From Saprospiraceae bacterium (lineage in GTDB: Bacteria; Bacteroidota; Bacteroidia; Chitinophagales; Saprospiraceae): a stretch of 56,361 nucleotides of DNA. Numbering within the stretch: the stretch's first letter is position 1; the number at the start of each line of letters is the position of its first letter. Below the pieces are notes generated by a model. That model was not told the DNA's origin. It saw only the letters and a program-made list of their open reading frames with translations, and searched no databases. Below, in pieces: positions 6,872-55,662 of this stretch. The position numbers were made by a program, and so were the translations under genes. The stretch is taken from contig JAYUUR010000112.1 in the NCBI GenBank assembly GCA_043754475.1, forward strand, positions 1-56,361. The letters are read 5' to 3'.

Positions 6872-6874
6872 CAC

Positions 6875-6908
6875 AAAAAAAACCTGTAAGAGCGTTAACT
6901 CTTACAGG
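6875..6908 (-). terminator. Rho-independent terminator of the convergent OMP gene
   Basis: 10-bp stem cctgtaagag / ctcttacagg (6883-6892 / 6899-6908). On the minus strand it is followed by a T8 run (A8 at 6875-6882 on the plus strand). Confidence 0.7.
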
Positions 6909-6940
6909 CAAAATTTTATCTATTCTCAATACAAATATTA

Positions 6941-7615: not shown

Positions 7616-7740
7616 AAAATACAGTTTTTGTTAAAAAATAAATTACTTAATAATATACGAGATATTTACATTTTTTGTTTTTAAAAATTTAGTTTTTAAC
7701 ATTTTTTTTAGTATAAAATTTAATCATCAATATTTTTTAA

Positions 7741-8898: not shown

Positions 8899-8903
8899 AG
8901 TTT

Positions 8904-8968
8904 TGTCATTCAGTAGGAATCTCTTTTTACCATTACGATTTCACAAAAGAGATTCCTGCTGAATGACA
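8904..8968. repeat. Long inverted repeat built from two TGTCATT...AGGAA (REP-like) units
   Basis: 24-bp arms tgtcattcagtaggaatctctttt (8904-8927) and aaaagagattcctgctgaatgaca (8945-8968). There is one mismatch (G-U compatible) and a 17-nt loop. Confidence 0.85.
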
Positions 8969-8973
8969 CAAAC

Positions 8974-9020
8974 AAAAAGTCCTAAATTTTGCTTATCACA
9001 AAATTTAGGACTTTTTATTT
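8974..9020. terminator. Bidirectional Rho-independent terminator between the reductase gene and porV
   Basis: Perfect 17-bp stem aaaaagtcctaaatttt / aaaatttaggacttttt (8974-8990 / 9000-9016) with A/T runs on both sides. Confidence 0.8.
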
Positions 9021-9044
9021 TATAAAGTATTGATAATCAATAGA

Positions 9045-15612: not shown

Positions 15613-16518
15613 ATGATGAAGCAATTTTTTACAAGTGTAAATCGTACCGCCAAACTGCATTTTACTGAGGGGGTCAAGTATATGGTGATTAGTACACTTT
15701 GTTTTACTGTTATGCAAGGTCTGATTAAATTTTTACCTCAAGACCGTATTCCTACCATCGAACAGACGTTTTTTCGCTCATTCATTACGGCTATATTTTG
15801 TGTGTTTTTTATGTTTAAAAAGCATATCCCTTTTGCTATTAAAAATGTAAAAATGATTTTGATACGGAGCATAGTCGGGTCTATTTCAATGTTTGCATTC
15901 TTTTATGTTTTACCTCGAATGCCTTTTGGCAGCTCTGTTACTATCAAGTATTTATCACCTGTTTTCACCGCTTTATTTGCTGGAGCAATGTTGAACGAAA
16001 GAATAAAACCCATCCAATGGATTTATATTTTAATGGCTTTTATCGGTATTACATTTTTGAAAGGATTTGATGACCGCATCGCTTTGATAGATTTGTTCAT
16101 TGCACTTATATCAGCCGTAACTGCAGGATTATTATACATCATACTTCGGCAAATTGGGAATGATGACCATCCTTATACAGTGGTTTTTTATTTTATGCTC
16201 ATCGCCAGTCTTATATCTGCCGTTTTGATGATTCCCTATTGGGTAACACCCACTATAGAAGACAGTTGGGTATTTTTAGGCGTCGGTTTTTCTGGATTTA
16301 TAGCTCAAATATATATGACCAAAGCCTTTCAAGAAAAAGAAGATGCCAATTATTTAGCCCAATTTAAGTACTTAGAAGCCGTTTTCGCCATCATCATTGG
16401 CTATTTATGGTTTGGCGAAACCTATAATTTTTTGAGCTTTTTGGGCATAGTACTCATATTTATTAGCCTCATTTTAAACATTCGTTTGAAATCGAAGGAA
16501 AAAGTCCTAACAAAATGA
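15613..16518 (+). CDS. DMT superfamily (EamA-type) transporter
   Basis: 301-aa ORF with about 10 predicted TM helices in two EamA-like halves. Confidence 0.7.
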   Translation: MMKQFFTSVNRTAKLHFTEGVKYMVISTLCFTVMQGLIKFLPQDRIPTIEQTFFRSFITAIFCVFFMFKKHIPFAIKNVKMILIRSIVGSISMFAFFYVLPRMPFGSSVTIKYLSPVFTALFAGAMLNERIKPIQWIYILMAFIGITFLKGFDDRIALIDLFIALISAVTAGLLYIILRQIGNDDHPYTVVFYFMLIASLISAVLMIPYWVTPTIEDSWVFLGVGFSGFIAQIYMTKAFQEKEDANYLAQFKYLEAVFAIIIGYLWFGETYNFLSFLGIVLIFISLILNIRLKSKEKVLTK

Positions 16519-16681: not shown

Positions 16682-16691
16682 CCCCTCAGTA
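16682..16691 (-). repeat. Intergenic copy of the iterated word (CCCCTCAGTA on plus strand)
   Basis: Exact 10-mer. It forms the left flank of the AbiE cassette. Confidence 0.95.
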
Positions 16692-20518: not shown

Positions 20519-20560
20519 AAAAGTCTCCATTTATCAGTGTGATAAATGGAGACTTTTTTA
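20519..20560 (+). terminator. Rho-independent terminator of gldJ
   Basis: Perfect 17-bp stem aaaagtctccatttatc / gataaatggagactttt (20519-20535 / 20541-20557) with a 5-nt loop, followed by a T run. Confidence 0.85.
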
Positions 20561-20599
20561 ATTTTGTGGAAATCGTTAGACAATTATTTGAAAATAAAA

Positions 20600-21277
20600 A
20601 TGGACAATACTTTTTTAGCACCCCCTCAGTATTTAGGTGAATATAAGCGTTCAGAAAAAGCAGCCATCGCTATTTTGAGCATTTTATACCTCGTCGGTAT
20701 CGCAGGTTTTATATTCAAAATACACCCTAATTTCGCCAAATTGACACCTGTTAATCTAATCATTTCGCTCATTGTGGTTCTCATTTTTCATCCTCAATGG
20801 AATTGGAGAATAGTCTTATTTATCATTATTTGCCCTGTAATCGGTTTTATTGTAGAAATGAAAGGCGTTGAAACAGGTCTAATTTTCGGTCATTATAAAT
20901 ATGGTGAAACGCTTGGCTTAAAGTTCAATGATACCCCCCTCAGTATCGGCGTGAATTGGTTGCTTATCGCATATTGTTCTGCTGCGTTAGTGAGTCATTT
21001 TACTGCTGAAAAAGGCAGCATTATTTTGAAAGCGCTCTTGGCTTCTGCCCTCATGGTGAGCCTTGATGTACTTATTGAACCGATTGCCATGAAAGCTGAT
21101 ATGTGGTCGTGGCAGAACGATGACATACCCATGCAGAACTACCTCGGCTGGTTTTTAACAGCCTTACCCTTGCAGTTATTATTTTTCATTTTAAATAAAT
21201 CGGTTAAAAACAAAGTTGCCGTCGCGTTGTTAATAGCACAGTTCCTTTTCTTTTGGATTCTCAGTTATAAATTTTAA
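20600..21277 (+). CDS. Carotenoid biosynthesis membrane protein (DUF422 / Caroten_synth family)
   Basis: Polytopic membrane protein directly upstream of crtZ (3-nt gap). I chose the ATG at 20600 (MDNTFLAPPQY...) because the track start at 20546 lies inside the gldJ terminator hairpin. Confidence 0.6.
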   Translation: MDNTFLAPPQYLGEYKRSEKAAIAILSILYLVGIAGFIFKIHPNFAKLTPVNLIISLIVVLIFHPQWNWRIVLFIIICPVIGFIVEMKGVETGLIFGHYKYGETLGLKFNDTPLSIGVNWLLIAYCSAALVSHFTAEKGSIILKALLASALMVSLDVLIEPIAMKADMWSWQNDDIPMQNYLGWFLTALPLQLLFFILNKSVKNKVAVALLIAQFLFFWILSYKF

Positions 21278-21820: not shown

Positions 21821-21830
21821 CCCCTCAGTA
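21821..21830 (-). repeat. Intergenic copy of the iterated word (CCCCTCAGTA)
   Basis: Exact 10-mer between the tandem duplication and the terminator hairpin. Confidence 0.95.
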
Positions 21831-22311: not shown

Positions 22312-22503
22312 TGCATACAGTTTTTTTATTAATAAAATTTTGATGAAAAATTGCATCTTTTCATCCTCGTTTTCATCAATATAAGACTATTTTTTACTAC
22401 ATTTGGTTGGGATGAAATTGTTAAACGTTTCTTAAAATTATCTCCATTTGAAAAATCAAAAATGAAAATGGGTTTATCAAGTAGAACTTTTATACCTCCA
22501 TCC

Positions 22504-22556
22504 TGCCACGCTCCGCTCGCAGTAACAATTATGCCACGTTCCTCGCAATGACATTT
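22504..22556 (-). repeat. Tandem pair of REP-like units (TGCCACG..TCGCA.T.ACA.TT)
   Basis: tgccacgctccgctcgcagtaacaatta (22504-22531) is followed by tgccacgttcctcgcaatgacattt (22532-22556). The second unit is identical over 25 nt to 511-535. Confidence 0.85.
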
Positions 22557-23823: not shown

Positions 23824-25995
23824 ATGAACTTGAAATATAAATTTAGCTTAATTTTATTTATACTACCATTCTTAATTTTTGGTCAAACAGATTCTATTAA
23901 AGAACGTAAACTTCAAAGCCTACTCATAATAGGACAACGTGTAGATATCGAAAGGTTGCCTTCAGTTCAAAATACGTTTATTTGGTCAGGTAAAAAAAAC
24001 GAGGTCATTTCTTTAGTCAATTCGGATGTCAATATTGCTGAAAAAACGGCGCGCCAGATTTTTGCCAAAGTCCCAGGTATTTTTGTCTATGATATGGACG
24101 GGACAGGTAATCAAATGAATATTTCGACTCGTGGGCTTGATCCACACCGTGGCTGGGAATTCAATATTCGCAGCAACGGCATCTTGACCAATTCAGATAT
24201 TTATGCCTACCCAGCCAGTCATTATAGCCTTCCTATGGAAGCTGTGGAACGCATTGAATTGGTTAGAGGAACGGGGGCTTTGCAATATGGCGCACAATTC
24301 GGCGGGATGCTTAATTATGTTCCTAAACAGATTGATACAACGCGACCCCTCAGTCTTGAAACCATCAATTCGGTCGGTACTTATGGTTTGTTTAGCACTT
24401 ACAATGCTATCAGCGGTAAAATTGGTAAATGGGAATATGCTGCTTACTATACAAAACGGGTTTCAAAAGGTTATAGAAAAAATAGTGAAAGTGATTTCAA
24501 TAGCCAAACCGTTATGTTACGTTATAAGCCTAATAAAAATATGAGCATTAAAGCAGAGTTAGGGCGATCAAACTACATTTATCATGTTCCGGGTGGCTTA
24601 ACAGATTCCATGTTTGCCGCCGATGCAAGGCAATCTACGCGCAGCCGAAACTATTTTAATCCTGAAATTTATGTACCATCGGTTCAGTTTGATTGGCAGA
24701 TAAATAATAAGACAAAATTAAGTTGGACAAATTCCGCCGTTTTGGGTGATAGAAGAAGTATATTGTTTGATAGACCTGCAAATGTGGTGGATAAAATTGA
24801 TCCCGTAACCTTGACTTATGCGAATCGCCAAGTGGATATTGACCATTTCAATAGCCGCACTTCTGAATTGCGTTTGTTACATGAATATCGGTTGTTTAAT
24901 AATACCCCCTCAGTATTAGCAGCCGGTGTGCAGTATTTTAACAACGATATGCGTCGTCAACAGTTGGGGAAAGGAACAACAGGGACAGATTTTGATTTAA
25001 CGATTTTGGGTAGTTTTGGGCGTGATATGTATTTGAAAAGTGAAAATATCGCATTTTTTGCTGAAAACAGATTTCAATTATCCCCTAAATTAGTTCTTAG
25101 TGCAGGTATGCGCTTTGAAAAAGGTACTTCTAAAATGTCGGGTGTCATTAATTATTTGCCAAATAGTGATGTGCCAAATGTTATTAAGCATAGTTTTCCA
25201 CTTTTGGGTTTGAATGCCGAATACAAACTCGATAATGAAAAGAATTTTTATGCAGGATTTTCGCAGGCTTATCGCCCTGTTATTTTTAAAGATATTATTC
25301 CTGCGTCTGTTTTTGAAAGGTCTGATAAAAATCTTAAAGACGCCCGTGGCTATAACCTTGAAGCCGGTTTTAGGGGTAAATCTCAACATTTCAAGTGGGA
25401 TTTAGGTATTTTTCAAGTACAATATAATAATCGTCTGGGCAATCAATCGTTGAATGAGAACGGGCAATTTTTGATTTACCGAACCAATATTGGTAACTCC
25501 ATGACGCGCGGTGTTGAGGCTTTTGGCGAATATTCTACTTATATTACTGAGGGGGTACGCTTCTCCATTTTTACTTCAACGTCATATATGGAAGCCAAAT
25601 ATGAAAATGCTCAAATCCGAGTGGGCAATGAAAACAAAAATATCAGTGGTAATCAAGTAGAAAGTGTGCCGAAATGGATTAGTAGAAATGGGGCAACTGT
25701 ACGCTACAATAAACTCAGCATAACTGCACTTTATAGCTACACAGCCGAGAGTTTCGCCGACCCCTTAAACACTGTTAAACCTTCTGCAAACGGTGCTGTT
25801 GGTTTAGTACCGGCTTATGGTTTGTTGGATATAAATGCATCATGGCGTATATCTTCTCAAATACTCTTGCGAATGAGTCTCAATAACGTAACGGATGAAA
25901 AGTATTTTACAAAAAGACCGCTATTCTATCCAGGTCCCGGTATTTGGACTTCAGATGGGCGAGGTGCTAATATTTCAATAGCTTTTAAACTTTAA
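23824..25995 (+). CDS. TonB-dependent outer-membrane receptor
   Basis: 723-aa ORF with a signal peptide, a plug domain (…ERIELVRGTGALQYGAQFGGMLNYV…), a 22-strand-type barrel pattern and a C-terminal ...ISIAFKL. Confidence 0.85.
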   Translation: MNLKYKFSLILFILPFLIFGQTDSIKERKLQSLLIIGQRVDIERLPSVQNTFIWSGKKNEVISLVNSDVNIAEKTARQIFAKVPGIFVYDMDGTGNQMNISTRGLDPHRGWEFNIRSNGILTNSDIYAYPASHYSLPMEAVERIELVRGTGALQYGAQFGGMLNYVPKQIDTTRPLSLETINSVGTYGLFSTYNAISGKIGKWEYAAYYTKRVSKGYRKNSESDFNSQTVMLRYKPNKNMSIKAELGRSNYIYHVPGGLTDSMFAADARQSTRSRNYFNPEIYVPSVQFDWQINNKTKLSWTNSAVLGDRRSILFDRPANVVDKIDPVTLTYANRQVDIDHFNSRTSELRLLHEYRLFNNTPSVLAAGVQYFNNDMRRQQLGKGTTGTDFDLTILGSFGRDMYLKSENIAFFAENRFQLSPKLVLSAGMRFEKGTSKMSGVINYLPNSDVPNVIKHSFPLLGLNAEYKLDNEKNFYAGFSQAYRPVIFKDIIPASVFERSDKNLKDARGYNLEAGFRGKSQHFKWDLGIFQVQYNNRLGNQSLNENGQFLIYRTNIGNSMTRGVEAFGEYSTYITEGVRFSIFTSTSYMEAKYENAQIRVGNENKNISGNQVESVPKWISRNGATVRYNKLSITALYSYTAESFADPLNTVKPSANGAVGLVPAYGLLDINASWRISSQILLRMSLNNVTDEKYFTKRPLFYPGPGIWTSDGRGANISIAFKL

Positions 25996-26509: not shown

Positions 26510-27646
26510 TTATTTTTTTATATATCGATTGGATAAAATAAACATGATGACGAATAAAAATAAGGAAAAAAGTAAACCTATTCGCAAACTAAATGCATCC
26601 GCTATATAACCAATGACAGGCGGACCCACAAAAAAACCTGCATACCCAATCGTCGTCGCCATCGCAATCCCAACGCTTGGAGCTACCCCCTCAGTATTTC
26701 CGGCTGTGGAATAGACAATCGGCACTATCGTCGCCAATGATAAGCCGACGATAAAAAAACCTATCAAAACGATAATAGGAATGGCAGTCAAAAGCGCAAT
26801 TGAAAGCCCTACTATTGCAGCTAAACTATTGAAAATCAACATGTTACGCTTGCCATATTTGGCAGTAAAATAATCTCCAAAAATGCGCCCGGTGGTCATA
26901 GCCACAGCGAATGCGCCAAATGTCAATGCTGAAAATGCCTCGCTCTGTCCTATTTCTTTATGCATATACAACGCCGACCAATCGGCAATAGAGCCTTCGC
27001 CCGTCATCCCGCAAAAGGCGATAAAGCCAATAGGCACAATGGCTTTTGTAGGCAAGCGAAACGTAGCCCCCCCCTCAGTATTTAGCTCAATTTTCGACGC
27101 TTCATCGCTAATTAAATTAAAAGCTGCCCATAAAATAACGCTTAAACAGAATATACTGACTACTATAAAATGATTGAAAAGAGCGACCTCAAATTTCGCC
27201 ATCAAAGCCCCACAACCAGCCCCCAAAGCTGTGCCTATGCTCCAAACACCATGAAAAGAGGATAAAATAGGCTTTTTGTAAATGCGTTCCACGTACACGG
27301 CTTGTCCGTTCATGGCTACATCTTCCGAACCGCTCAAGACGCCAAAAAGAAAAAACAGCGCACCGATAAACCATAAATTGGATAAAAGCGGAATCATTAT
27401 TAACAACGAAGCCATCGTTGCACCCGTAAAAATGGTGATGCGGCGGCTGCCGAAAAGCACTGTCAAATAGCCTGCAAATGGCATGGCTGTTATGGCACCA
27501 GCCGCCGAGCAAAGCAACAGCGTACCGAGCGTAGCATGTGAAATATTGTATAGCTTTTCAACTTCGGGCAAACGCGCTACCCAATTGGCATATTGAAATC
27601 CATTTGTAAAGAAAAATAATGCAACGGCTAATCGTTTGATTTTCAT
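26510..27646 (-). CDS. MFS transporter
   Basis: 378-aa ORF with 12-TM-like organisation and a typical MFS N-terminus. It lies 6 nt from both neighbouring genes. Confidence 0.75.
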   Translation of the reverse strand: MKIKRLAVALFFFTNGFQYANWVARLPEVEKLYNISHATLGTLLLCSAAGAITAMPFAGYLTVLFGSRRITIFTGATMASLLIMIPLLSNLWFIGALFFLFGVLSGSEDVAMNGQAVYVERIYKKPILSSFHGVWSIGTALGAGCGALMAKFEVALFNHFIVVSIFCLSVILWAAFNLISDEASKIELNTEGGATFRLPTKAIVPIGFIAFCGMTGEGSIADWSALYMHKEIGQSEAFSALTFGAFAVAMTTGRIFGDYFTAKYGKRNMLIFNSLAAIVGLSIALLTAIPIIVLIGFFIVGLSLATIVPIVYSTAGNTEGVAPSVGIAMATTIGYAGFFVGPPVIGYIADAFSLRIGLLFSLFLFVIMFILSNRYIKK

Positions 27647-27652: not shown

Positions 27653-28174
27653 TTATAATAACAGTTTTTCAATATCCAACCAATTATCCACGCGGTGGTG
27701 TCTGCCAATATCAGCATATATATTATGAGTGGACGTAAAAAGCAGGGTTTGACCAGTGAAATAATCGAGGTTTTTAAAATGATCGTCAATCATAATATCT
27801 GCTTGAATAATGGTTTTTGAACCACAAAAACACATCTGTCGCCAACTGATAAATGGAAAATGTTCACTGAGCCATGCGTGTTTTTCATTGAGGCATTGAG
27901 GAAATTCGGTAGCAGCAGAAACAATAAAAACCTCATATTCAAGATTCAAAGCCTGCATAATACGTTGACTATCAGGCATTACGAGAATATCCCGAAAGAA
28001 CCCCTCAGTAAAAACCCATTTCCGAGCGTTCGGAAAAGCTATAAAATCATTCAGTCCATTCACATCTTCTATTTTTTTCTGCTCGCCTGTTTCGCGCTCA
28101 TGCCAAATGAGAAATTGGGTAGCGACATCCGCCATAACGCCATCCATATCTACGGCGATTCGTTTTTTTTTCAT
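27653..28174 (-). CDS. 5'(3')-deoxyribonucleotidase (NT5C-type HAD hydrolase)
   Basis: 173-aa ORF with the HAD motif I IAVDMDGVMAD and a downstream IDD motif. The size fits NT5C-family enzymes. Confidence 0.7.
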   Translation of the reverse strand: MKKKRIAVDMDGVMADVATQFLIWHERETGEQKKIEDVNGLNDFIAFPNARKWVFTEGFFRDILVMPDSQRIMQALNLEYEVFIVSAATEFPQCLNEKHAWLSEHFPFISWRQMCFCGSKTIIQADIMIDDHFKNLDYFTGQTLLFTSTHNIYADIGRHHRVDNWLDIEKLLL

Positions 28175-28715: not shown

Positions 28716-30134
28716 ATGTCCAAATTTACATTAATCACTCTATTTGTATTGACAACAATACAAATACTCAGCGCACAAAAAATCACCATATTTTTTGATA
28801 ACTCGCTGTCATCTACCCCCTCAGTATCAAAAGCCCCTTTGAAGTATAATAAAGATTTTGCTTATAGTTTAACCTTCGATGATGCTACGTCGGACGCTTT
28901 CACACACGCCATGCCGCTCCTGCGCGGCGGCACGTTGAAGGAATTCGACACGCCTTTTAGGGGTTTGTTTTTTACAGACGGTTGCGGCAATGATGTGCCA
29001 TTTAGGGCTGGTATCGCATGGAATTCCGTCGCTTTCAACGGCAATGACACCCATAATGGCGATGTTCAAGGTAGCTTGACATGGCGGCAACTTGACTCGC
29101 TTTATGATTATGGATGGGATATACTTAACCATAGTTACTCCCATAAATCGGTTTTTACGAACCAAATGACTACACTGGATTATGTGAATGAAGTCATTAA
29201 AAACCAAGCAGCCGTTCGTGAAAAAACGGCAAAACATATAGAAATGCCCATCTTTGTAGTGCCTTCTGGCGATGTAGCTTATCAAGACATTGCTTTGCAA
29301 TTAGGCAGTAAAGTGGTTTTTGACCAATCGGGCAACAACCTCATTGGCTTTGGTGGGTTACAAATAGACGCCGATTTGAATTTGAATGGGTTGCGCATTC
29401 ACCGGCAGAAAATAGAAGAAAGCTCGACGCTCAATCAGTTAGAAAATGTAGTGAATAGAAGTCAGAATGGCGGTCATTATTGGTATAATGAGTTTGCACA
29501 CCGCATTGACAATTTCAATCCCTATGGTTTCAATTATTATTCTTTCAAAAATCAAATGCAAAAAATAGCGGATAATTGGGGAAAAAATGGTTCCGACCGC
29601 GTTTTGATGGCGCCTTTGCAAGAGGTTTTTGAATATTTGGTCTTGAGACAAACAGTCAAAATGACGACTGCTATAATGGGTCAAAAGATGGATATTACCT
29701 TCGACCTTTCGCAAGTGCCGACTTGGTTACGCCGTAAAACCTTGACTTTAGTTGTCAATTCCAACTCAACTTTTAGCCGCGTAGATGTACCCAATAATAT
29801 TGAAAAAACATTCAAAGGCATTGGTAATCAAAAAATTATAAATGTAGATTTTTCACAATACCTCAATTCCACGCCTACACAGGACTTGGCTACCCCCTCA
29901 GTATTTCGCGTATTTCCCAACCCGGCAGGCGATTTTTTAAACATCGAATTGCTCAATGATGCACCTGAACCGGCTGAGTTGACCATCAGCGAAATGAGTG
30001 GGAAAGTATATTTCATGCATCGTTTACCTTCAAAAAAATACCAACAGAATATTCAATCATTGCCAAAAGGCATGTATATTTTAAGCATTAAACAAGGCAC
30101 TCAAATATCATCTACAAAATTTTATAAAAATTGA
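28716..30134 (+). CDS. Secreted polysaccharide deacetylase (NodB-homology) with T9SS C-terminal sorting domain
   Basis: 472-aa ORF with a signal peptide, the FAYSLTFDDATSD NodB-type motif, and a C-terminal VFPNPAGDFLNIEL...GMYILSIKQG...KFYKN type-A T9SS sorting domain. Confidence 0.7.
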   Translation: MSKFTLITLFVLTTIQILSAQKITIFFDNSLSSTPSVSKAPLKYNKDFAYSLTFDDATSDAFTHAMPLLRGGTLKEFDTPFRGLFFTDGCGNDVPFRAGIAWNSVAFNGNDTHNGDVQGSLTWRQLDSLYDYGWDILNHSYSHKSVFTNQMTTLDYVNEVIKNQAAVREKTAKHIEMPIFVVPSGDVAYQDIALQLGSKVVFDQSGNNLIGFGGLQIDADLNLNGLRIHRQKIEESSTLNQLENVVNRSQNGGHYWYNEFAHRIDNFNPYGFNYYSFKNQMQKIADNWGKNGSDRVLMAPLQEVFEYLVLRQTVKMTTAIMGQKMDITFDLSQVPTWLRRKTLTLVVNSNSTFSRVDVPNNIEKTFKGIGNQKIINVDFSQYLNSTPTQDLATPSVFRVFPNPAGDFLNIELLNDAPEPAELTISEMSGKVYFMHRLPSKKYQQNIQSLPKGMYILSIKQGTQISSTKFYKN

Positions 30135-31627
30135 AAATAGGCATTATTGGAGCTGGTATAGCAGGATTGGCTACGGCAGTCAGATTGGCGAGCAAAGGGC
30201 ATGAAGTGCATGTTTTTGAAGCCAATAATTATGCAGGCGGCAAATTGTCCGAATTTACATTGTATGCGAATGGTTCAGATGACATTCAACGCGCATACAG
30301 ATTCGATGCAGGACCTTCACTTTTCACCATGCCAATGTATGTGGAAGAACTTTTTAAAGAAGCCAATGTGCCCATAAAAGATTATTTCAGTTATGATAAA
30401 ATAGATGTCGTCTGTCAATATTTTTGGGAAGATGGCACTCAATTGACAGCTTGGTCAGATGAACAAAAACTGGCGCAAGAGATTCAAAATCAATTAGTTA
30501 TAAAACCAGAAGTAATAGAAAAAGCCCTTGCATCGGCTAAAAGAAAATATGAAACGGCAGGGCGCATTTTCCTTGAAAAAAGCCTCCATAAAGTGTCCAC
30601 TTGGACAACTTTACCTGTAGCCAAAGCTTTACTACTTATGCCCGGTTTCGATATTTTTAAAACGATGAACGCTACGCATGAGCAATTTACATCTCATCCT
30701 AAACTTATTCAATTCCTTAACCGCTTTGCCACTTACAACGGCTCAAATCCCTACAAAGCATCGGGTATGTTGAGCATGATTCCGCATTTTGAGCATGGCA
30801 TCGGCGCATTTTATCCGCGCGGAGGCATGTATGAAATCACAAAATCCATTTATAAATTAGCTCAATTAAAGGGTGTACATTTTTATTTTAATCAAAAAAT
30901 AGAGTCTATAAAAGTAGAAAATAATGCTGCAAAAGGCTTAAATACTGAGGGGGGATACTTCGATTTTGACACCATCATTTCCAATATGGATGTATATTTT
31001 ACTTACAAACAACTCTTACCTCATGAAAAACACCCTGAAAAAACCTTAAATCAAGAACGCTCCACGTCAGCTCTCATTTTTTATTGGGGCATCAAAAAGT
31101 CATTTAATCATTTGCATTTACACAATATCTTTTTTTCAAATGACTATAAAAATGAGTTTGATTATTTAGCAAAAGGCGAAGTTGGCGACGACCCCACGGT
31201 GTATGTCAATATATCTTCAAAGCAAACGCCGAGCGATGCGCCCGAAGGTTGTGAAAATTGGTTTGTGATGGTGAACGTGCCACATAATTTAGGGCAAAAT
31301 TGGGATGAAGTAATTAAAAGAACGCGTGGCAATATTATTAAAAAATTATCTAAAATATTATCTAAAATATTAAACGTTGATTTGCAATCACTTATAGAAG
31401 TAGAAGATATTTTATACCCCCTCAGTATAGAAAGTAAAACAGCGTCTTTTGGCGGTGCATTGTACGGTACAAGCAGCAATTCGATGATGTCAGCATTTTT
31501 AAGGCATAAAAATTTTTCGTCAGATATTAAGAATTTGTACTTCTGTGGTGGGTCGGTACATCCCGGCGGCGGCATTCCGTTGTGTTTATTGTCGGCTAAA
31601 ATTGTTTCGGAGTTGATTGAGAAGTAA
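30131..31627 (+). CDS. Phytoene desaturase family enzyme (CrtI/CrtD-type carotenoid desaturase)
   Basis: 498-aa ORF with the N-terminal KIGIIGAGIAGLATAVRLA FAD fold and a C-terminal ...GGSVHPGGGIPLCLLSAK block typical of CrtI-family enzymes. Its TTG start overlaps the upstream stop by 4 nt (TTGA). Confidence 0.75.
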   Translation: MKIGIIGAGIAGLATAVRLASKGHEVHVFEANNYAGGKLSEFTLYANGSDDIQRAYRFDAGPSLFTMPMYVEELFKEANVPIKDYFSYDKIDVVCQYFWEDGTQLTAWSDEQKLAQEIQNQLVIKPEVIEKALASAKRKYETAGRIFLEKSLHKVSTWTTLPVAKALLLMPGFDIFKTMNATHEQFTSHPKLIQFLNRFATYNGSNPYKASGMLSMIPHFEHGIGAFYPRGGMYEITKSIYKLAQLKGVHFYFNQKIESIKVENNAAKGLNTEGGYFDFDTIISNMDVYFTYKQLLPHEKHPEKTLNQERSTSALIFYWGIKKSFNHLHLHNIFFSNDYKNEFDYLAKGEVGDDPTVYVNISSKQTPSDAPEGCENWFVMVNVPHNLGQNWDEVIKRTRGNIIKKLSKILSKILNVDLQSLIEVEDILYPLSIESKTASFGGALYGTSSNSMMSAFLRHKNFSSDIKNLYFCGGSVHPGGGIPLCLLSAKIVSELIEK

Positions 31628-31708: not shown

Positions 31709-33100
31709 TTAATTGACACTTAGTTTTGGGAAAGTAAAATAGAAAGTAGTGCCTACCCCCTCAGTACTATTGAGCCAAATTTTACCACCGGCACCGGCAA
31801 CAATTTTTTTGCAAGTAGCCAATCCAATGCCACTACCTTCAAATTCGTTGCGCGAATGGAGGCGTTCAAAAATGGCAAAAACTTTCTCATGAAATTCCTT
31901 TTTGATTCCGATGCCATTGTCATCGAGGCTGATAAGATAATTATCGCCTTCATCAGATGCCGTAATTTTGATTTCAGGTATCACATCTGCTTTACGGAAT
32001 TTGATAGCATTGGCAATCAAATTTTGAAATAATTGAATCATCTCAGTAGTAGAACCTTCGATAGTAGGCAATTCGTTAATAACAATAGTAGCATGTGTAT
32101 CCTTCATAGTAGCAACAAGATTGCTGATAACAACGAATAATACTGCATTCAAATCAATTTCCTTATTATCTTCCTGTTTTTTACCAGTCCGCGAATATTG
32201 AAGCAAATCATCGAGCAAACGTTGCATTCTATCCACGCCATCGGTCACATAGGTCATATATTCAATGGTTGGTTTATCTTGTAAAGTAACCATTCTCTTT
32301 TTGGATAAGCCTGTGTACATGCCAATCATTCGGAGCGGCTCTTTGAGGTCGTGAGAAGCGGCAGAAGCGAAATTTTCAAGCTCGCCATTTTTATGAATGA
32401 GTTTCGTTTGGGTGACTTCGAGTTCGGCGTTTTTTTCTAATATTTCAATTTTTTGAAGTTCTAAAAGGTTTTTTTGCTCTTCAAGGATTTCTTTCTGATT
32501 CTCAAGAATTATCTTTTGTTGTTGGAGCATTTTGATAATTAAATCTTGCCCTTTTTCGAAGATGACGACAATTCCAAAAATAAATAAAAAGAGGAAAGAA
32601 TAACTTGTATAGTAATATGTAATATCAACCTCTGTGTTGAAAATTTGAGCATGACTTGATGTATTATCATAAAAATAAAGATAAGACGAGAATAAAAGTA
32701 AGGAGCAAAACCAAAAAAAACCTGATTTTTTATTTCCAAAAAGTAAAGCAATGAGAGGTGAAATAAACATCCATAATAGGTTATCAGAAAGTAAACCTCC
32801 CGTTTCTTGGACACTGGGTAATAAAGTGATAAAACAAATTAAGACTAAAAAATTACTAGAAACAACAAGGCTTCCGAATTTTTTCAAACTAAACAAAATA
32901 AAGAAGAAAAATATTATAGGTATAAATAGATTTGGAGCGTTGTTTAAACCCAACATTCTAATACAAAGTTCTATAGCTATCGTAGAGATAGCAAGGAATA
33001 GTATGAGTCCGACAAACACATACGCTCTATAGTAAATATAAGATTCTTTTTTTAGATTATCGTGTATAAAATACTTTATTGTTCGCTTTAGATGAGTCAT
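31709..33100 (-). CDS. Sensor histidine kinase (multi-TM N-terminus, coiled coil, HisKA + HATPase_c)
   Basis: 463-aa ORF with the H-box SHDLKEPLR, N-box ...LIANAIKF, and G-boxes DNGIGI and GSGIGLA. No response regulator is adjacent. Confidence 0.8.
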   Translation of the reverse strand: MTHLKRTIKYFIHDNLKKESYIYYRAYVFVGLILFLAISTIAIELCIRMLGLNNAPNLFIPIIFFFFILFSLKKFGSLVVSSNFLVLICFITLLPSVQETGGLLSDNLLWMFISPLIALLFGNKKSGFFWFCSLLLFSSYLYFYDNTSSHAQIFNTEVDITYYYTSYSFLFLFIFGIVVIFEKGQDLIIKMLQQQKIILENQKEILEEQKNLLELQKIEILEKNAELEVTQTKLIHKNGELENFASAASHDLKEPLRMIGMYTGLSKKRMVTLQDKPTIEYMTYVTDGVDRMQRLLDDLLQYSRTGKKQEDNKEIDLNAVLFVVISNLVATMKDTHATIVINELPTIEGSTTEMIQLFQNLIANAIKFRKADVIPEIKITASDEGDNYLISLDDNGIGIKKEFHEKVFAIFERLHSRNEFEGSGIGLATCKKIVAGAGGKIWLNSTEGVGTTFYFTFPKLSVN

Positions 33101-34978: not shown

Positions 34979-34988
34979 TACTGAGGGG
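34979..34988 (+). repeat. Intergenic copy of the iterated word (TACTGAGGGG)
   Basis: Exact 10-mer immediately 5' of the terminator hairpin. Confidence 0.95.
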
Positions 34989-35061: not shown

Positions 35062-35967
35062 CTAATCTTTTTTACCTCCCCACAAAGTAAATACGCGTGA
35101 CACATTGAAGCCAAAACGAACCGCATTTTTGCCCCAATTATTTTCCGTCTGAGTAATAAATCCATACTCTGACATGGAGGTAGAATTGGTAAAATGCAAT
35201 TGAAAAACGTGCCCGCCTGTTTCAATATCCAAACCCACCGACAGCGAATTTTTAAAATTAGGCGCTAACTGATTGGGCAACACATATACATATTCCGCAT
35301 TGAACGTCATCCGTCGGGTCAAACGGACTCGCCCGCCGATACCCAATGCAAAGACATCATTTTTTTCATCCGTCGTTTTCACCAAATTGCGGTGAACATA
35401 AGAAGGGGCTAATTCTAAGGTTATATAATCGTTTAGTTTGCTACCAATCAGCAATTGAGACGTGTAAAATAAGCGCGAAGAGAAATAATTTTCTCTCGTC
35501 GGGTCATCGGGTTTTTGAGTTTCAACTGCCGTTCCTAATATAATTGCTACTGAAATGGGCATATTGCGTTTACCTGTACTTTGTCTTAAAAATTTATACT
35601 TAACAAAGCCATCATAGGCTTTTCTGACACTGTTTCTATTCACCCCAACACTCAATTGGTCAGTAAGACCAAAATCAAATCCAATGCGTATCGTCGCTTG
35701 GTCAATACCAAAGAGGTTATATATGCCCTCATCAATAGTGGCAAAGCGATGGGAGATTTTGAAATCCATCACCCCCGCTGCCGTATTTTCTAATGAATGC
35801 AGATTGATAATTCTATTGGTTTTGAAACTATACTTAGTATAATTGATTTCATCATCGCTTTCAATAAGCGACAATAAGCTGCTCGCTGTATCTTTCTGAG
35901 GCTTTTGAGCCACGCTTTTAAATGCCCAAATACTGAGGGGTATCAAAACAAGTAATATTTTTTTCAT
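35062..35967 (-). CDS. Predicted outer-membrane beta-barrel protein (resembles DUF5777-type)
   Basis: 301-aa ORF with a signal peptide (…SIWAFKSVAQ), alternating beta pattern and an HRF motif early in the barrel. The family call is from memory only. Confidence 0.5.
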   Translation of the reverse strand: MKKILLVLIPLSIWAFKSVAQKPQKDTASSLLSLIESDDEINYTKYSFKTNRIINLHSLENTAAGVMDFKISHRFATIDEGIYNLFGIDQATIRIGFDFGLTDQLSVGVNRNSVRKAYDGFVKYKFLRQSTGKRNMPISVAIILGTAVETQKPDDPTRENYFSSRLFYTSQLLIGSKLNDYITLELAPSYVHRNLVKTTDEKNDVFALGIGGRVRLTRRMTFNAEYVYVLPNQLAPNFKNSLSVGLDIETGGHVFQLHFTNSTSMSEYGFITQTENNWGKNAVRFGFNVSRVFTLWGGKKD

Positions 35968-36763: not shown

Positions 36764-37153
36764 TTATTTCAACACTATACAACGTGTCATCACTACATCA
36801 GCCAATTTGCCGTCGCATTGCCCTTTGATGGTCACCTCATCGCCTGCTTTTACTGAGGGGGTCATTGCGCCTTTTTCTAATTCACAACTTATAGAAACCA
36901 TCGGGTCTTCTGTTTCGAGCGTTACATTAGTCGTTTCATTTTCAGTTTCCACTGAAGCTACCTTACCTTTTACAGATAAAACTTTTCCAGCATGTTTGTC
37001 TTTATCAAATTGACTACCCAATTCATTGGCATCCATCGTTAGCATAGCATCGCGAGAAGCCATGCTCGGCGTTTTTTTATTCCACATATAATAGCCATAA
37101 CTACCGCCTAAAACAGCCATCACAAGACCGATTAAAAGAATTTTTCGTAACAT
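36764..37153 (-). CDS. Membrane-anchored OB-fold protein (tRNA_anti-like family)
   Basis: Likely start is the ATG at 37153 (MLRKILLIGLVMAVLGG..., a TM anchor). The C-terminal ...GKVLSVKGKVASVE...ISCEL...GDEVTIKGQCDG...VVMTRC pattern fits the tRNA_anti-like OB-fold family. Confidence 0.5.
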   Translation of the reverse strand: MLRKILLIGLVMAVLGGSYGYYMWNKKTPSMASRDAMLTMDANELGSQFDKDKHAGKVLSVKGKVASVETENETTNVTLETEDPMVSISCELEKGAMTPSVKAGDEVTIKGQCDGKLADVVMTRCIVLK

Positions 37154-37203
37154 TCTATATTTTTTAAATCTATTGTCTAAATATCTAATTTCTAAATTCT
37201 CAC

Positions 37204-37213
37204 TACTGAGGGG
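37204..37213 (+). repeat. Intergenic copy of the iterated word (TACTGAGGGG)
   Basis: Exact 10-mer in the 62-nt gap between two cluster genes. Confidence 0.9.
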
Positions 37214-37215
37214 TA

Positions 37216-37620
37216 TCAATTATTTAACAAACCCGCATTCACCCACAGTTGAAGTTTTGTAATATCACATTCGGCTAATTTAGAGCCTCCTTGCGGCATA
37301 CGCGAAAAGCCAGCAGAATGCTTGATAGAACCAAAAAATGCAGTCGAATTTCGACTTATATAATTTTTGATATTGGTATAGCCATCTAAATTCACGCCGG
37401 CAGAGGCTGAAATAGTATTATGACAACCAGAAGTAGCACATTTAGAAGCCATCAAAGGTGACACGAATGTTGAAAATTTAGCAGTGGATGAATCGCAAGT
37501 GGTCGTACTCTTAGTAGGATAAAGTTCCGATTCTACATTGTATTTACAACTTTGAGCAGACAAAATAATGAAAAAAGCTAATACAATCGTGAGAATATAA
37601 TACTGTTTTTTCAAGCGCAT
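37216..37620 (-). CDS. Lipoprotein with cytochrome-c-like (PSCyt1-like) domain, atypical CX4CH
   Basis: Likely start is the ATG at 37620 (MRLKKQYYILTIVLAFFIILSAQSC, a lipobox). It contains KCATSGCHN ... MPQGG ... LQLWVNAG. This resembles the heme-binding domains that carry CxxCH...MP...WI..GA, but with four residues between the cysteines. Confidence 0.45.
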   Translation of the reverse strand: MRLKKQYYILTIVLAFFIILSAQSCKYNVESELYPTKSTTTCDSSTAKFSTFVSPLMASKCATSGCHNTISASAGVNLDGYTNIKNYISRNSTAFFGSIKHSAGFSRMPQGGSKLAECDITKLQLWVNAGLLNN

Positions 37621-37780: not shown

Positions 37781-38932
37781 CTATTTAGATAATACTTGAT
37801 TATTCATTTTTTCTAAAATTTCTATTGTAAATGCATGAACCAGTTCGCCATTGTGAGTAATCAAACTGCCTTTAGTAATTTCCTCTTCCATCTCCCACTT
37901 GAAACCATTTTCATTGACTAAATGTAGCAACAAAGTAGAAATGTTGCGAGCATATAATTCTGAAGAATTGACAGGCAGCAAGGCAGGTAGATTGGATACA
38001 CCAATAATAGTCACGCCATGAACTGTTATGGTTTCATCTTTTTGGCTCAGTTCGCAATTACCACCCCACTCTACTGCCATATCCACGATGACAGCACCCA
38101 TTTTCATGGATTCAACCATATCTTGAGTCACCAAAACAGGGGCTTTTTTACCTGGCACTAATGCTGTAGTGATGACAATATCAGCTTCTTTTATGCGCTG
38201 ACGGATTAAGGTTTTCTGTTTTTCAAGAAATTCTTTAGATACTTCTTTTGCATAACCGCCTTCAGTTTTCACCCCTTCATCAGCCACTTCCAAGAAGCGA
38301 CCACCGAGTGACTCGACTTGTTCTTTGGTTTCAGGGCGAACGTCAGTGACCTCTACAACAGCACCTAAACGTTTTGCAGTAGCAATGGCTTGAAGCCCTG
38401 CCACACCTGCTCCAAAAATGAGGACTTTGGCAGGAGTAATAGTGCCTGCAGCAGTTGACATCATAGGGAAAATCTTTCCACTGGCATTGGCAGCCATCAA
38501 AACAGCTTTGTAACCAGCCAAATTCGTTTGAGAACTGAGAGCATCCATTTTTTGAGCACGCGTAATGCGCGGCACTGCATCCATCGAAAAAGCTTGAATA
38601 TTTCTTTTGTTCAGGGTCTCAATGACACTCGGAATGGTGTAGGCATAAAGAAATGAAATCAATACCGAGCCTTTTTTGAGCATTTCGGCTTCAGATACTG
38701 AGGGGGCATTGACTTTCAAAATGACATCGGCATTGGCATATAAATCCTTAGTGTTAAGAATTATTTCTGCGCCTGCATCTATGTAATTTTGATTGCTAAA
38801 TGAAGCCCTTTCACCCGCTCCCGATTCTATCCGAATCGTCATGCCCGTTTTTATTAATTGTTTTGTAATATCAGGTGTGAGGGCAACTCGATTTTCAAAG
38901 GATTTGGTTTCCTTTGGTACTGCTACTATCAA
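37781..38932 (-). CDS. NAD(P) transhydrogenase alpha subunit part 1 (PntAA) / alanine dehydrogenase-family protein
   Basis: 383-aa ORF starting MIVAVPKETKSFENRVALTPD, with an NAD fold VLIFGAGVAGLQAIATAKRLGA. No pntAB or pntB gene is adjacent. Confidence 0.7.
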   Translation of the reverse strand: MIVAVPKETKSFENRVALTPDITKQLIKTGMTIRIESGAGERASFSNQNYIDAGAEIILNTKDLYANADVILKVNAPSVSEAEMLKKGSVLISFLYAYTIPSVIETLNKRNIQAFSMDAVPRITRAQKMDALSSQTNLAGYKAVLMAANASGKIFPMMSTAAGTITPAKVLIFGAGVAGLQAIATAKRLGAVVEVTDVRPETKEQVESLGGRFLEVADEGVKTEGGYAKEVSKEFLEKQKTLIRQRIKEADIVITTALVPGKKAPVLVTQDMVESMKMGAVIVDMAVEWGGNCELSQKDETITVHGVTIIGVSNLPALLPVNSSELYARNISTLLLHLVNENGFKWEMEEEITKGSLITHNGELVHAFTIEILEKMNNQVLSK

Positions 38933-39827: not shown

Positions 39828-39837
39828 CCCCTCAGTA
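39828..39837 (-). repeat. Iterated word in the rpoA-rplQ spacer
   Basis: Exact CCCCTCAGTA inside a 161-nt spacer. Confidence 0.95.
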
Positions 39838-42079: not shown

Positions 42080-42089
42080 TACTGAGGGG
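42080..42089 (+). repeat. Iterated word in the rpsM-rpsK spacer
   Basis: Exact TACTGAGGGG inside a 112-nt spacer. Confidence 0.95.
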
Positions 42090-42964: not shown

Positions 42965-43801
42965 CTAATTTTTTATTGAAATTTCCAAGAGATTTGAATT
43001 TTTCTTTACAGCTTCTTGTATGAATGAGTGGTCGGAAAGAATATCCGCTTTTTTTCCTTTGCGGATGGCGATAGTGTGTTCAAAGTGTGCGGAAGGTTTT
43101 TTATCAGATGTGATGATTGTCCAACCATCTCCAATACCCGTTACTTCCTTTGTTCCTAAATTAATCATTGGTTCAATAGCGATTACCAAACCATCTCTCA
43201 GTACAACGCCGTTTCCTCGTTTACCATGATTAGGCACATCCGGATCTTCGTGTAATGCTTTACCGATACCATGTCCTGTCAAATCTCTTACTACACCATA
43301 TTTATGGTGCTTCTCACAATATTCAAAAATGGCAAAGCCAATATCTCCTATTCTTTTTCCAACCATTGCTTGATCAATACCTTTATAAAGTGATGTATTT
43401 GTCACATTTAAAAGGTCTAATACTGAGGGGGTAACACCTCCTAAAGCGAAAGTATAAGCAGCATCTCCAAAATACCCATTTAATAAAGTACCGCAATCCA
43501 CTGAAACAACATCATTATCTTGAAACTCTCGATTGGTAGGAATGCCATGAACAACGGCTTCATTCATAGATATGCACAAAGCGGCAGGGAAATCGCGGTA
43601 ACCTTTGAAAGCAGGAACAGCATTATGATCTCTAATAAACTCCTCCGCTTTTTGATCTATAAATTGACTTGTAATACCGGGCTTGATTAATGTACCAACG
43701 TAAGCTAAAGTTTTTGAAACTAATAAACAACTCTCACGAATTAATTCAATTTCATCATCCGTTTTGTAGTATATTTCTTTTTTCTCGCTTGATTGAAACA
43801 T
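42965..43801 (-). CDS. map: Type I methionine aminopeptidase
   Basis: MetAP pattern (…VVHGIP…DVVSVDCG…GHGIG…LHEDP…IAIEPM…FEHT). I prefer the ATG at 43801 because 43828 would overlap secY. Confidence 0.9.
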   Translation of the reverse strand: MFQSSEKKEIYYKTDDEIELIRESCLLVSKTLAYVGTLIKPGITSQFIDQKAEEFIRDHNAVPAFKGYRDFPAALCISMNEAVVHGIPTNREFQDNDVVSVDCGTLLNGYFGDAAYTFALGGVTPSVLDLLNVTNTSLYKGIDQAMVGKRIGDIGFAIFEYCEKHHKYGVVRDLTGHGIGKALHEDPDVPNHGKRGNGVVLRDGLVIAIEPMINLGTKEVTGIGDGWTIITSDKKPSAHFEHTIAIRKGKKADILSDHSFIQEAVKKNSNLLEISIKN

Positions 43802-46557: not shown

Positions 46558-46567
46558 TACTGAGGGG
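46558..46567 (+). repeat. Iterated word in the rplR-rpsE spacer
   Basis: Exact TACTGAGGGG inside a 133-nt spacer, 4 nt after repeat copy A. Confidence 0.95.
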
Positions 46568-48054: not shown

Positions 48055-48064
48055 TACTGAGGGG
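48055..48064 (+). repeat. Iterated word in the rpsN-rpsH spacer
   Basis: Exact TACTGAGGGG inside a 161-nt spacer. Confidence 0.95.
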
Positions 48065-49837: not shown

Positions 49838-50098
49838 TTATTTCGCTTTCGCAACCACTTCAATAAGTCTCCAACGCTTCAATTTACTGAGGGGGCGTGT
49901 CTCCATGATGAGGACAGTATCGCCCACTCCGACAACATTCAACTCGTCGTGAGCGTGTAATTTCTTAGTTTGCTTGACGAATTTGCCGTAAATCGGATGC
50001 TTCAACTTACGCTCTACTTTTACAGTAATCGTCTTGTTTCTCGCACTACTTGATACGATACCGATACGGGTCTTTCTAAGATTTCTTTCAGCACTCAT
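49838..50098 (-). CDS. rpsQ: 30S ribosomal protein S17
   Basis: ...[19 protein letters not shown]...[17 protein letters not shown]... The RPLSK codons spell the iterated word. Confidence 0.95.
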
Positions 50099-51081: not shown

Positions 51082-52032
51082 TTATTTTTTGACTCCGCCG
51101 CCGCCACCACCGCGATTTCCACCGCCGCCGCCACCGCCACGATTGCCGCCACCGCCAGTTCCGCCACCACGATTGCCGCCACCTGCTCCACCGCTACCAC
51201 CGCGATTTCCACCGCCGCCGCCACGATTGTCACGTCCATCTCCACCACCTCTATTATCTCTGCGATCACCACCGCCTCTGTTATCACGACGATCACCACC
51301 ACCTCTGTTATCACGGCGATCTCCACCGCCTCTATTATCTCTGCGATCTCCGCCGCCGCCGCCAGTATTTGTAGTAGACCCCTCAGTAAGAAGCGTTAAT
51401 TCGCGCTTACCAAAGACTTCGCCTTTACAAATCCAAACTTTGATACCCAATTTTCCATAAACAGTTTGAGCTTCGCTGTGAGCGTAATCAATATCCGCAC
51501 GGAAAGTATGTAGAGGTGTACGACCTTCTTTGAATTCTTCACTCCGAGCCATATCTGCACCGTTCAAACGACCACCAATACGCACTTTGATACCTTCGGC
51601 ACCTACACGCATAGTTTGTTGAATAGCCATTTTGATAGCACGTCGATAGTTGATACGACCTTCAAGCTGTTTAGCTATAGATTCACCAACAATAGCGGCA
51701 TCTAATTCCGGCTTACGGATTTCATTGATGTTGATTTGAACATCTTTACCGGTGAGTTTTTTTAACTCTTCGCGGATACGATCAACTTCTTGACCACCTT
51801 TGCCGATAATAATACCGGGGCGAGATGTCTGAATTGTAACCGTTACACGCTTGAGCGTGCGCTCCATGATAACACGGGCAACGCCACCTTTGCTAATACG
51901 GGCTTTGAGGTAATTACGGATTCTTTCATCCTCAACTACTTTCTCCGCCATATCTTTACCACCGAACCAGTTAGATTCCCAACCACGGATGATACCCAAG
52001 CGATTACCTATCGGATTTGCTTTTTGACCCAT
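51082..52032 (-). CDS. rpsC: 30S ribosomal protein S3 with ~98-aa Gly/Arg/Asp/Asn repeat tail
   Basis: [23 protein letters not shown]..., with KH and S3-C domains, followed by the tail (GGGDRRDNR)x4-5 and (G)nNR repeats. Confidence 0.93.
51223..51357 (-). repeat. Five tandem 27-nt units encoding GGGD(R/G)RDNR within rpsC
   Basis: Units occupy 51223-51249, 51250-51276, 51277-51303, 51304-51330 and 51331-51357. They have synonymous and near-synonymous differences. Confidence 0.9.
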
Positions 52033-52536: not shown

Positions 52537-52546
52537 TACTGAGGGG
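52537..52546 (+). repeat. Iterated word in the rpsS-rplV spacer
   Basis: Exact TACTGAGGGG inside a 141-nt spacer. The local sequence tatactgagggggtata has 5-nt inverted arms. Confidence 0.95.
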
Positions 52547-55652: not shown

Positions 55653-55662
55653 TACTGAGGGG
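55653..55662 (+). repeat. Iterated word in the rpsJ-rplC spacer
   Basis: Exact TACTGAGGGG (local gatactgaggggtatc) inside a 339-nt spacer. Confidence 0.95.

Follow-up and report, generated by a model that had tools for sequence, protein, structure and literature searches.

The stretch of DNA analysed here, referred to as the window, is the whole 56,361-nucleotide (nt) contig JAYUUR010000112.1 (C112) of a Saprospiraceae bacterium, and it carries 43 exact copies of a 10-base word, TACTGAGGGG, one of which lies in the gene for ribosomal protein S17. The assembly comprises 5.10 Mb in 668 contigs with 38.2% G+C, and the organisms in question are uncultured and represented by metagenome-assembled genomes (MAGs). 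The coding copies of the word are in-place instances of a clade-specific DNA word and are neither inserted elements nor products of selection at the protein level. The copies arise by substitution under a force that acts on DNA and afterwards preserves them, irrespective of reading frame, strand, and coding status. By analogy with known systems, this force is most likely that of uptake signal sequences (USS); in-place base changes that frequently alter the protein are familiar from the uptake sequences of Haemophilus and Neisseria, with no report to date from this phylum.

Across the assembly, the word occurs 3,915 times, i.e., approximately once per 1.3 kb, against six copies of the reversed control word, and it is the top-frequency k-mer at every k from 8 to 12. 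Its 8-base core, ACTGAGGG, is found 46 times in the window, compared with 0.44 times in shuffled sequences, which never held more than three, and one-mismatch variants of the core number only 0–37 copies each in the whole genome. In the window, 33 copies are coding, being translated as TEG (13), LRG (5), PLS (6), PSV (8), and PQY (1), and the remaining ten lie between open reading frames (ORFs); PLS numbers five at an ORF cut-off of 90 amino acids (aa) and six after addition of the S17 ORF, which is shorter than the cut-off. A crude and conservative genome-wide set of 4,056 ORFs with a minimum length of 90 aa, which together span 83.4% of the genome, contains 2,824 coding copies (TEG 915, PSV 660, LRG 515, PLS 456, and PQY 278), while 1,077 copies are intergenic and 14 extend across an ORF end. 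An earlier sequence-only reading of the window had placed the word in all five stop-free frames; its counts were reproduced exactly, and its named examples are right, namely ITEGY at 5333, LNTEGG at 27071 and 30943, TPSV at 24906, 28817, 29894, 36851, and 43421, and PQY at 20622, whereas the assignment of ILRGV at 3956 to MurA was confirmed by TIGR01072. Its statement that the sixth frame (TAC TGA) is never used holds by necessity inside ORFs but not at their ends: eight ORFs genome-wide terminate in Tyr followed by the TGA of the word itself as stop codon, and four more end on a TAA or TAG made with the last two letters of the word.

The S17 copy, which had been flagged in that reading, is located at 49885–49894 on the forward strand, and its reverse complement encodes P-L-S of the peptide RPLSK in a minus-strand ORF at 49838–50098 (86 aa). 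The ORF is ribosomal protein S17 (Pfam PF00366; NCBIfam TIGR03635, above cut-off), and the word supplies the codons CCC CTC AGT within R-P-L-S-K at residues 68–72. Conservation of the peptide extends to 58 of 64 S17 loci from Bacteroidota, and among solved structures the two S17 chains that match best carry RPLSK or RPLSR. The claim that the word is written into the conserved RPLSK of S17 is upheld. In G007, a word-free species of the same genus, RPLSK is encoded by CGT CCG CTC AGT AAA, two silent changes off the word; the difference is purely synonymous, in agreement with the proposal that this copy arose by codon choice and not by insertion.

The excess of the word over codon usage was estimated with a model in which the proteins are kept fixed and codons are drawn from the genomic usage. 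The word is expected 0.8–5.6 times per frame and observed 278–915 times, a 66- to 665-fold excess. In this comparison, which the sequence-only reading had proposed as a check, the word spells 76–96% of the compatible tetrapeptides, against a prediction of less than 1%, even though this requires codons that are rare in the genome, namely AGG (8% of Arg), CTG (7% of Leu), and GGG (12% of Gly). The other proposed check, alignment with orthologs from a word-poor relative, was performed against G007, which has three copies of the word and provided 198 reciprocal-best pairs of proteins that are on average 61% identical; counting k-mers over 400 kb of the G007 genome yielded no alternative over-represented word, just A/T-rich low-complexity words. 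Same-length replacement is the rule, as 142 of 160 word sites align without gaps, 12 lie in an insertion, and four in a deletion; gaps are associated with approximately 10% of word sites and with 3.8% of background 4-residue windows. For the coding copies, gapless alignments and codon excess together bear out the view that the change occurs at the level of substitutions, as opposed to an origin from a miniature inverted-repeat transposable element (MITE). Codon choice on a pre-existing peptide applies to S17 but is a minority route overall: the core tripeptide is unchanged relative to G007 at only 14 of the 142 gapless sites and differs by one residue at 37, two at 58, and three at 33, so silent recoding is the minority and the word usually alters the protein.

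The consequences for the proteome are considerable. Residue identity to G007 is 43% at word sites, compared with 61% in the background. Relative to their own permutations, the tripeptides TEG, LRG, PLS, PQY, and PSV are 2.2- to 4.2-fold over-represented in the present genome and 3.3- to 5.8-fold in the word-bearing species G013, and they are at parity (0.86–1.2) in the word-free G007. The tripeptide excess (approximately 2,700) matches the number of coding words, indicating that the proteome has been rewritten by the DNA word. Word density declines with protein identity to G007, from 0.75–1.0 per kb below 70% identity to 0.49 at 70–80% and to 0.22 in proteins more than 80% identical; for density versus protein conservation, Spearman rho is −0.27 (p = 1.5e-4). 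The word therefore changes proteins mostly where the cost is least, i.e., in weakly conserved proteins and at weakly conserved positions.

Once formed, the copies are maintained over long periods. G013 is as distant as G007, with 63% mean protein identity, and 90 of 154 coding sites are letter-perfect in this species; in the same genes, random 10-mers are exact in 3.4% of cases and silent third positions are identical in 36%. The distribution of mismatches is bimodal, sites being either perfect or unrelated, and only 12 sites show one to three mismatches. In the close relative G039 (87.4% DNA identity), 117 of 134 sites are exact, and the remainder are mostly one letter off. Furthermore, a 30-species alignment of a PorU-like gene reveals word sites common to both deep word-bearing subclades, words gained within subclades, and one-letter decays in single lineages, and the word-free species have the same length at these sites with other codons or residues.

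The word has a defined anatomy and a characteristic placement. Its consensus is a-A-TACTGAGGGG-[G/T], with the information mainly in a-A-T-ACTGAGGGG-[G/T]. On the 5′ side, an A-rich tract directly adjoins the word and is followed by a G+C-rich stretch and then by an A/T-rich tract 10–14 bases upstream; the two AT tracts, approximately 2 and 12 bases from the word, are thus one helical turn apart and on one side of the word only. They are stronger at intergenic copies and are seen again in G013 and G044, a further species of the genus. The word is split almost evenly between the strands, with 1,945 forward and 1,970 reverse copies, and its orientation depends neither on GC skew (positive bins: 268 forward, 286 reverse; negative bins: 308 and 264) nor on the coding strand (1,430 versus 1,394). 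Adjacent words have equal orientation in 51.7% of cases, and on contig C6 of G013 words of both strands are interleaved with no one-strand run. Spacing is more even than random, with a coefficient of variation of 0.77 versus 0.996 ± 0.018 in simulations respecting contig breaks, and gaps of less than 200 nt account for 6.8% of inter-word gaps versus 16.8% expected. Density per kb is 2.3 in convergent spacers, 1.37 in tandem spacers, 1.1 in divergent spacers, and 0.66 in coding sequence; close word pairs are inverted in 55 of 62 cases, and the most AT-rich tenth of genes has a 2.7-fold lower density. Intergenic copies have no preferred orientation relative to transcription (238 versus 281), which argues for a signal at the DNA rather than the RNA level; an Rfam scan of the window was negative, so the word does not belong to any known RNA. 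The two longest stretches lacking the 8-base core in the present genome (G000) are found on contigs C298 (1–11011) and C533 (the whole contig, 8149 nt, 48% G+C), whose ORFs are almost without Pfam matches; in view of its atypical G+C content, C533 could be foreign DNA or a mis-binned contig. On C564 (approximately 6281–9268; L221), a fused restriction-modification gene of the Eco57I/MmeI type (996 aa) lies in a 5.2-kb word-free stretch. That the long word-free stretches, with mostly Pfam-less ORFs and one Eco57I-type gene, represent accessory DNA is suggestive, not decisive.

The distribution of the word is sharply limited. Of 33 species in the genus, 21 carry 2,800–7,000 copies and 12 carry 1–39. 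One of these 12, G044, has two copies of the word in its usual form (the A form) and 2,769 copies of a one-letter variant, TACTGGGGGG (the G form), which reaches at most 34 copies in any other species of the genus; the tally is therefore 21 species with the word, one with a dialect, and 11 without. The dialect has a density of approximately one copy per 1.4 kb, and intergenic sites account for 70% of the copies; the sixth frame of the dialect contains no stop and is used (YWG, 2 of 55 coding copies). At the G044 loci inspected (L177–L216 and L136), the consensus has an extended G run and a T run 15–20 bases downstream, and it is longer and more element-like than in the present genome. In a tree based on three proteins (2,422 columns), the A-form species constitute one group with support of 92/89, and G044, which has a long branch, joins word-free species in the sister group; one origin of the word followed by losses and two separate origins are both possible. 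Outside the genus, neither the word nor a one-mismatch variant exceeds the control in the 149 further genera of this family or in 12 additional families of the order. Among the matches listed for ribosomal protein L2, the nearest named records are Saprospiraceae MAGs with 76–77% identity. Another species of the genus, G015, has 39 exact copies, approximately 10-fold more than other word-free species and 100-fold fewer than word-bearing ones, which could reflect imported DNA or contamination of the bin. No description of this word, nor of uptake-type words in Bacteroidota or Saprospiraceae, was found in the literature; matches to the word itself came from unrelated eukaryotic and viral sequences and from primers.

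On balance, and by analogy, the odds lean slightly toward the word being an uptake-sequence-like signal spread by molecular drive. Point substitutions convert near-matching sequence to the word in any stop-free frame that the protein tolerates; where a peptide is tightly constrained, as RPLSK is in S17, the changes are confined to silent sites, and elsewhere, at approximately 90% of sites, amino acids change as well. A site, once perfect, is kept letter-perfect over deep species divergence. In the proposed mechanism, a DNA-uptake apparatus would preferentially import word-bearing fragments and homologous recombination would spread word-bearing alleles in the population, which constitutes molecular drive. 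Words would accumulate at even intervals on both strands until the genome is saturated with approximately one copy per 1.3 kb, and lineages changing their specificity would evolve a dialect. Within Bacteroidota, Riemerella columbina has been reported to be naturally competent and to prefer its own DNA (PMC7965970). ComEC is found in 32 of the 33 genomes of the genus. On contig C631 of the present genome (approximately 3180–7651; L142 and L147), an apparent one-strand operon comprises ComEC (700 aa), a membrane-anchored protein of 395 aa with four ComEA-type helix-hairpin-helix (HhH) domains, and an MltA/3D-domain (MltA-like) murein transglycosylase/hydrolase; DprA is present elsewhere in the genome. 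This operon and DprA are predicted to encode the inner part of an uptake apparatus. The ComEA-like four-HhH gene adjoins ComEC in most species of the genus and is on a separate contig in G007.

Several observations weigh against uptake as the force. The secretin family (PF00263) is unmatched in all 33 genomes, while control genomes scored, and the T2SSE/PilB-type ATPase (PF00437) gives only sub-threshold matches in the present genome; with neither secretin nor pilus ATPase, the machinery known to read USS and the DNA uptake sequences (DUS) of Neisseriaceae is absent, and the outer-membrane step cannot be performed by a type IV pilus with secretin. Moreover, ComEC and the ComEA-like gene also occur in word-free species of the genus, so the competence genes fail to discriminate the word-bearing species. 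Bona fide phage regions with genes for terminase, head protease, and endolysin hold the word at 0.76–0.98 per kb; uptake drive would then need long residence as prophage, and a signal read inside the cell would be the more direct explanation of these copies. Finally, the scarcity of one-mismatch variants and the bimodal conservation demand a very strong drive. In a search for genes that track the trait, no candidate was retained: secretin is absent everywhere, and ComEC, the four-HhH protein, and Y1/IS200-type transposases are present in both word-bearing and word-free species. Phage regions among IMG/VR contigs (L267 and L254; also L231, L265, L298, L274, and L252), with genes for terminase, head maturation protease, endolysin, and virion or tail-spike proteins, carry the word at 0.6–1.1 per kb, i.e., at host-like density.

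The phage copies would be more directly accommodated if the word were an intracellular self-recognition signal, read by a Chi-like helicase-nuclease or a defence system and kept dense by selection on the cell and its phages. Phage structural and lysis gene regions at host-like density, the asymmetry of the word with a G-rich 3′ end as in Chi, and the long retention of perfect sites, as expected of sites that are functionally read, are in keeping with this explanation, as is one ORF of 1,094 aa with a PD-(D/E)XK nuclease domain that could be of the AddAB type. A 24-nt element, described below, appears to insert at a fixed point in the words, which implies that some enzyme recognises the word. 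However, the word shows no replication or strand polarity (51.7% same-orientation neighbours and no correlation with GC skew), whereas Chi and the FtsK-orienting polar sequences (KOPS) are strongly polar, and RecC (PF04257) was not found. Enrichment of approximately 650-fold, with some 2,700 tripeptides rewritten, is far above the few-fold excess of Chi, and per-site selection on approximately 4,000 sites that overrides the protein is hard to sustain without transmission bias. Self-recognition is therefore regarded as unlikely, with roughly one chance in five, and the same modest weight is given to its broader form, in which the word would not be an uptake tag but a new kind of genome-wide 'self' word. 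A sequence-specific enzyme system inside the cell, with enough strength to rewrite approximately 2,700 tripeptides of the proteome, would read it, phages of the clade would adopt it so as to be taken for self, and the 24-nt mini-element would land there. Less probable still is a mechanism like that of the highly iterated palindrome HIP1 of cyanobacteria, in which mutation or repair would be skewed in favour of the word by an orphan DNA methyltransferase or a short-patch repair activity, with a possible cellular role in recombination. HIP1 exceeds expectation 15- to 300-fold, lies in both genes and spacers, and is retained at orthologous positions; some lineages have it while relatives lack it, and recent work connects it with transformation (PMC5861425, PMC4390886, 10.1101/2024.09.10.611283, PMC13756078). 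The in-place substitutions, conservation, and clade limits of the present word resemble HIP1, but the word is non-palindromic while HIP-type words and methylase sites are palindromic, no cognate methyltransferase was identified and none was systematically sought, and even spacing is not predicted by mutational bias. We know of no precedent for a repair bias toward ten asymmetric bases with AT tracts one helical turn away.

The remaining alternatives, i.e., insertion origin, protein-level selection, and chance, are effectively excluded. An origin of the coding copies as insertions or footprints of a tiny mobile element, similar to MITEs or repetitive extragenic palindromes (REP), is very improbable: gaps are 2.6-fold more frequent at word sites than in the background (10% versus 3.8%), and a hairpin-like unit of 24 nt adjoins or interrupts words in approximately 68 copies, but gapless replacement holds for 142 of 160 sites, substitutions alone separate the S17 and PorU sites from their word-free orthologs, information is limited to approximately 12 bases and weak AT tracts with no terminal repeats and no longer conserved body, and just one of the 3,915 words is within 30 nt of the hairpin unit. 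More improbable again is that selection for peptides, ordinary codon bias, or chance produced the pattern; RPLSK of S17 is indeed an ancient conserved peptide, but one 10-mer is used in five unrelated frames and at 1,077 intergenic sites, the rare codons AGG, CTG, and GGG are used at 76–96% of compatible peptides, the word-free congener shows no tripeptide excess, and the reversed control word has six copies. The earlier argument against inserted elements stands for the coding copies of the word and requires one amendment, since a small insertion class does exist in the 24-nt units, which split words and do not create them. The unit, TGCCRCGCTCYGCTCGCAGTGACA, is present in approximately 68 copies genome-wide, including 511–535 and 22501–22556 in the window, and in 52 of 68 cases the left-hand portion of the word (CCCC(C)TC or CCCTCAGT) stands directly before it. 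At three orthologous sites, a plain word in G039 corresponds to a word split by the 24-nt unit in the present genome. Its usual length is divisible by three and 54 of the 68 copies fall within ORF calls, so that it looks like a tiny in-frame insertion element landing inside the word. Genes for Y1 transposases of the IS200/RAYT (REP-associated tyrosine transposase) type have nine matches in this genome and nine in the word-free G007, thus not tracking the word; these transposases may be connected to small hairpin units.

The individual copies in the window are distributed as follows, where (+) and (−) denote the strand of a word or ORF. The ORF at 911–2017(−) contains LRG (LILRGL) at 1503–1512(−) and TEG (VSTEGV) at 1946–1955(−). 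The murA gene at 3871–5196(−) contains LRG (TILRGV) at 3956–3965(−) and PSV (KYPSVG) at 4693–4702(+), and a HerA-like ORF at 5301–6818(+) contains TEG (TITEGY) at 5333–5342(+) and LRG (KILRGS) at 6565–6574(+). They are followed by LRG at 7275–7284(−) and TEG at 7484–7493(−) in the ORF at 6944–7615(−). Five copies lie in the PorU-like C25 peptidase gene at 10459–14310(−): TEG at 10615–10624(−), common only to the closest relative G039; PLS (YPLSKL) at 10881–10890(+), exact in 16 of 19 word-bearing species and encoded by other codons for PLS in word-free species; PSV (TDPSVS) at 11137–11146(+), common to ten species; TEG (SDTEGG) at 12298–12307(−), common to 15 species; and PLS (TPLSIR) at 14034–14043(+), common to ten species. 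LRG is found at 14520–14529(+) in the ORF at 14480–15496(+), TEG at 15663–15672(+) in the ORF at 15613–16515(+), and PQY (APPQYL) at 20622–20631(−) together with PLS at 20936–20945(−) in the ORF at 20546–21274(+). A gene for a TonB-dependent receptor at 23824–25992(+) carries PSV at 24906–24915(−) and TEG at 25545–25554(+), and that for a major facilitator superfamily transporter at 26513–27646(−) carries TEG at 26687–26696(−) and again, as LNTEGG, at 27071–27080(−). Further copies are TEG at 28001–28010(−) in the ORF at 27656–28174(−), PSV at 28817–28826(−) and 29894–29903(−) in the ORF at 28716–30131(+), TEG (LNTEGG) at 30943–30952(+) and PLS at 31418–31427(−) in an amine-oxidase-like ORF at 30329–31624(+), and TEG at 31757–31766(−) in the ORF at 31712–33100(−). 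PLS at 35931–35940(+) lies in the ORF at 35065–35967(−), PSV at 36851–36860(+) in that at 36767–37153(−), PSV at 38696–38705(+) in that at 37784–38842(−), PSV at 43421–43430(+) in that at 42968–43801(−), and TEG (LLTEGS) at 51379–51388(−) in that at 51085–52032(−). Intergenic copies occur at 16682–16691(−), 21821–21830(−), 34979–34988(+), and 39828–39837(−), and the copy at 37204–37213(+) is between ORFs or, given a TTG start, at the 5′ end of an ORF at 36764–37219. In the ribosomal-protein cluster, copies are mostly in spacers, with an intergenic copy at 42080–42089(+) and spacer copies at 46558–46567(+), 48055–48064(+), 52537–52546(+), and 55653–55662(+).

The full genomic and proteomic signature of an uptake signal, including a dialect, in secretin-free Bacteroidota would imply either a second mechanism of own-DNA recognition in transformation or a new class of self word. 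Either way, a force acting on DNA has reshaped proteins, with tripeptides increased up to 4-fold, and has held approximately 4,000 sites letter-perfect over deep divergence. The genus offers a natural experiment for the reader protein, with 21 species having the word, one the dialect, and 11 neither, and the word is of practical use as a marker for MAG binning, phage host assignment, and recently acquired DNA in these MAGs.

To our knowledge, sequence-specific DNA uptake signals are established in only two proteobacterial families, in which a type IV pilus/secretin machine acts as the reader. The behaviour of the present word in coding frames is known already for USS and DUS: Findlay and Redfield reported a proteome signature in which the tripeptides are approximately doubled and sites are concentrated in poorly conserved genes and residues (PMC2817400). 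USS consist of a core and two helically phased T tracts (PMC3458573), and the present word similarly has a short asymmetric core with two AT-rich tracts one helical turn apart on a single side. Likeness to USS extends to a density of approximately one copy per 1.2–1.3 kb, equally common orientations, and even spacing (PMC2817400, PMC3458573), as well as to the location of about two thirds of copies in ORFs, tripeptides doubled or more, sites in poorly conserved genes and residues, and depletion in atypical genes. By contrast, the present word occurs in Bacteroidota, has an unrelated core, and would have an uptake bias only by analogy; no type IV pilus or secretin is present as a reader, one-mismatch variants are much rarer relative to perfect copies, and phage regions carry the word. 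The DUS of Neisseriaceae (GCCGTCTGAA and its dialects), whose receptor is the minor pilin ComP, is likewise a clade-limited word of 10–12 bases, with inverted pairs and enrichment between convergent genes. Neisseriaceae DUS have one-letter dialects, and these are mutually exclusive in related lineages, as are the two forms here (PMC3630211). It differs in that no pilin receptor system is present here and in that 72% of copies are in ORFs, versus approximately 35% in N. meningitidis (PMC2817400), while the copies of G044 are 70% intergenic. HIP1 (GCGATCGC) is also a hyper-abundant short word in genes and spacers that spreads through substitutions, persists at orthologous positions, occurs in some lineages and not in others, and is tied to gene transfer (PMC5861425, PMC4390886, PMC13756078), but it is palindromic and lies within methyltransferase sites, whereas the present word is asymmetric with phased AT flanks. 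KOPS are strongly polar (PMC3384302). Both KOPS and Chi, the regulator of RecBCD/AddAB, share with the present word that they are short, asymmetric, G-rich, over-represented, and read on DNA, but they are polar to replication and modestly enriched, whereas the present word is unpolar and approximately 650-fold enriched in a genome in which RecC was not found. Chi is strongly polar, and its excess is typically few-fold. Phylum, the absence of a pilus/secretin reader, strength of effect, and phage copies set the present word apart from USS and DUS, and by analogy it is a candidate member of the uptake family.

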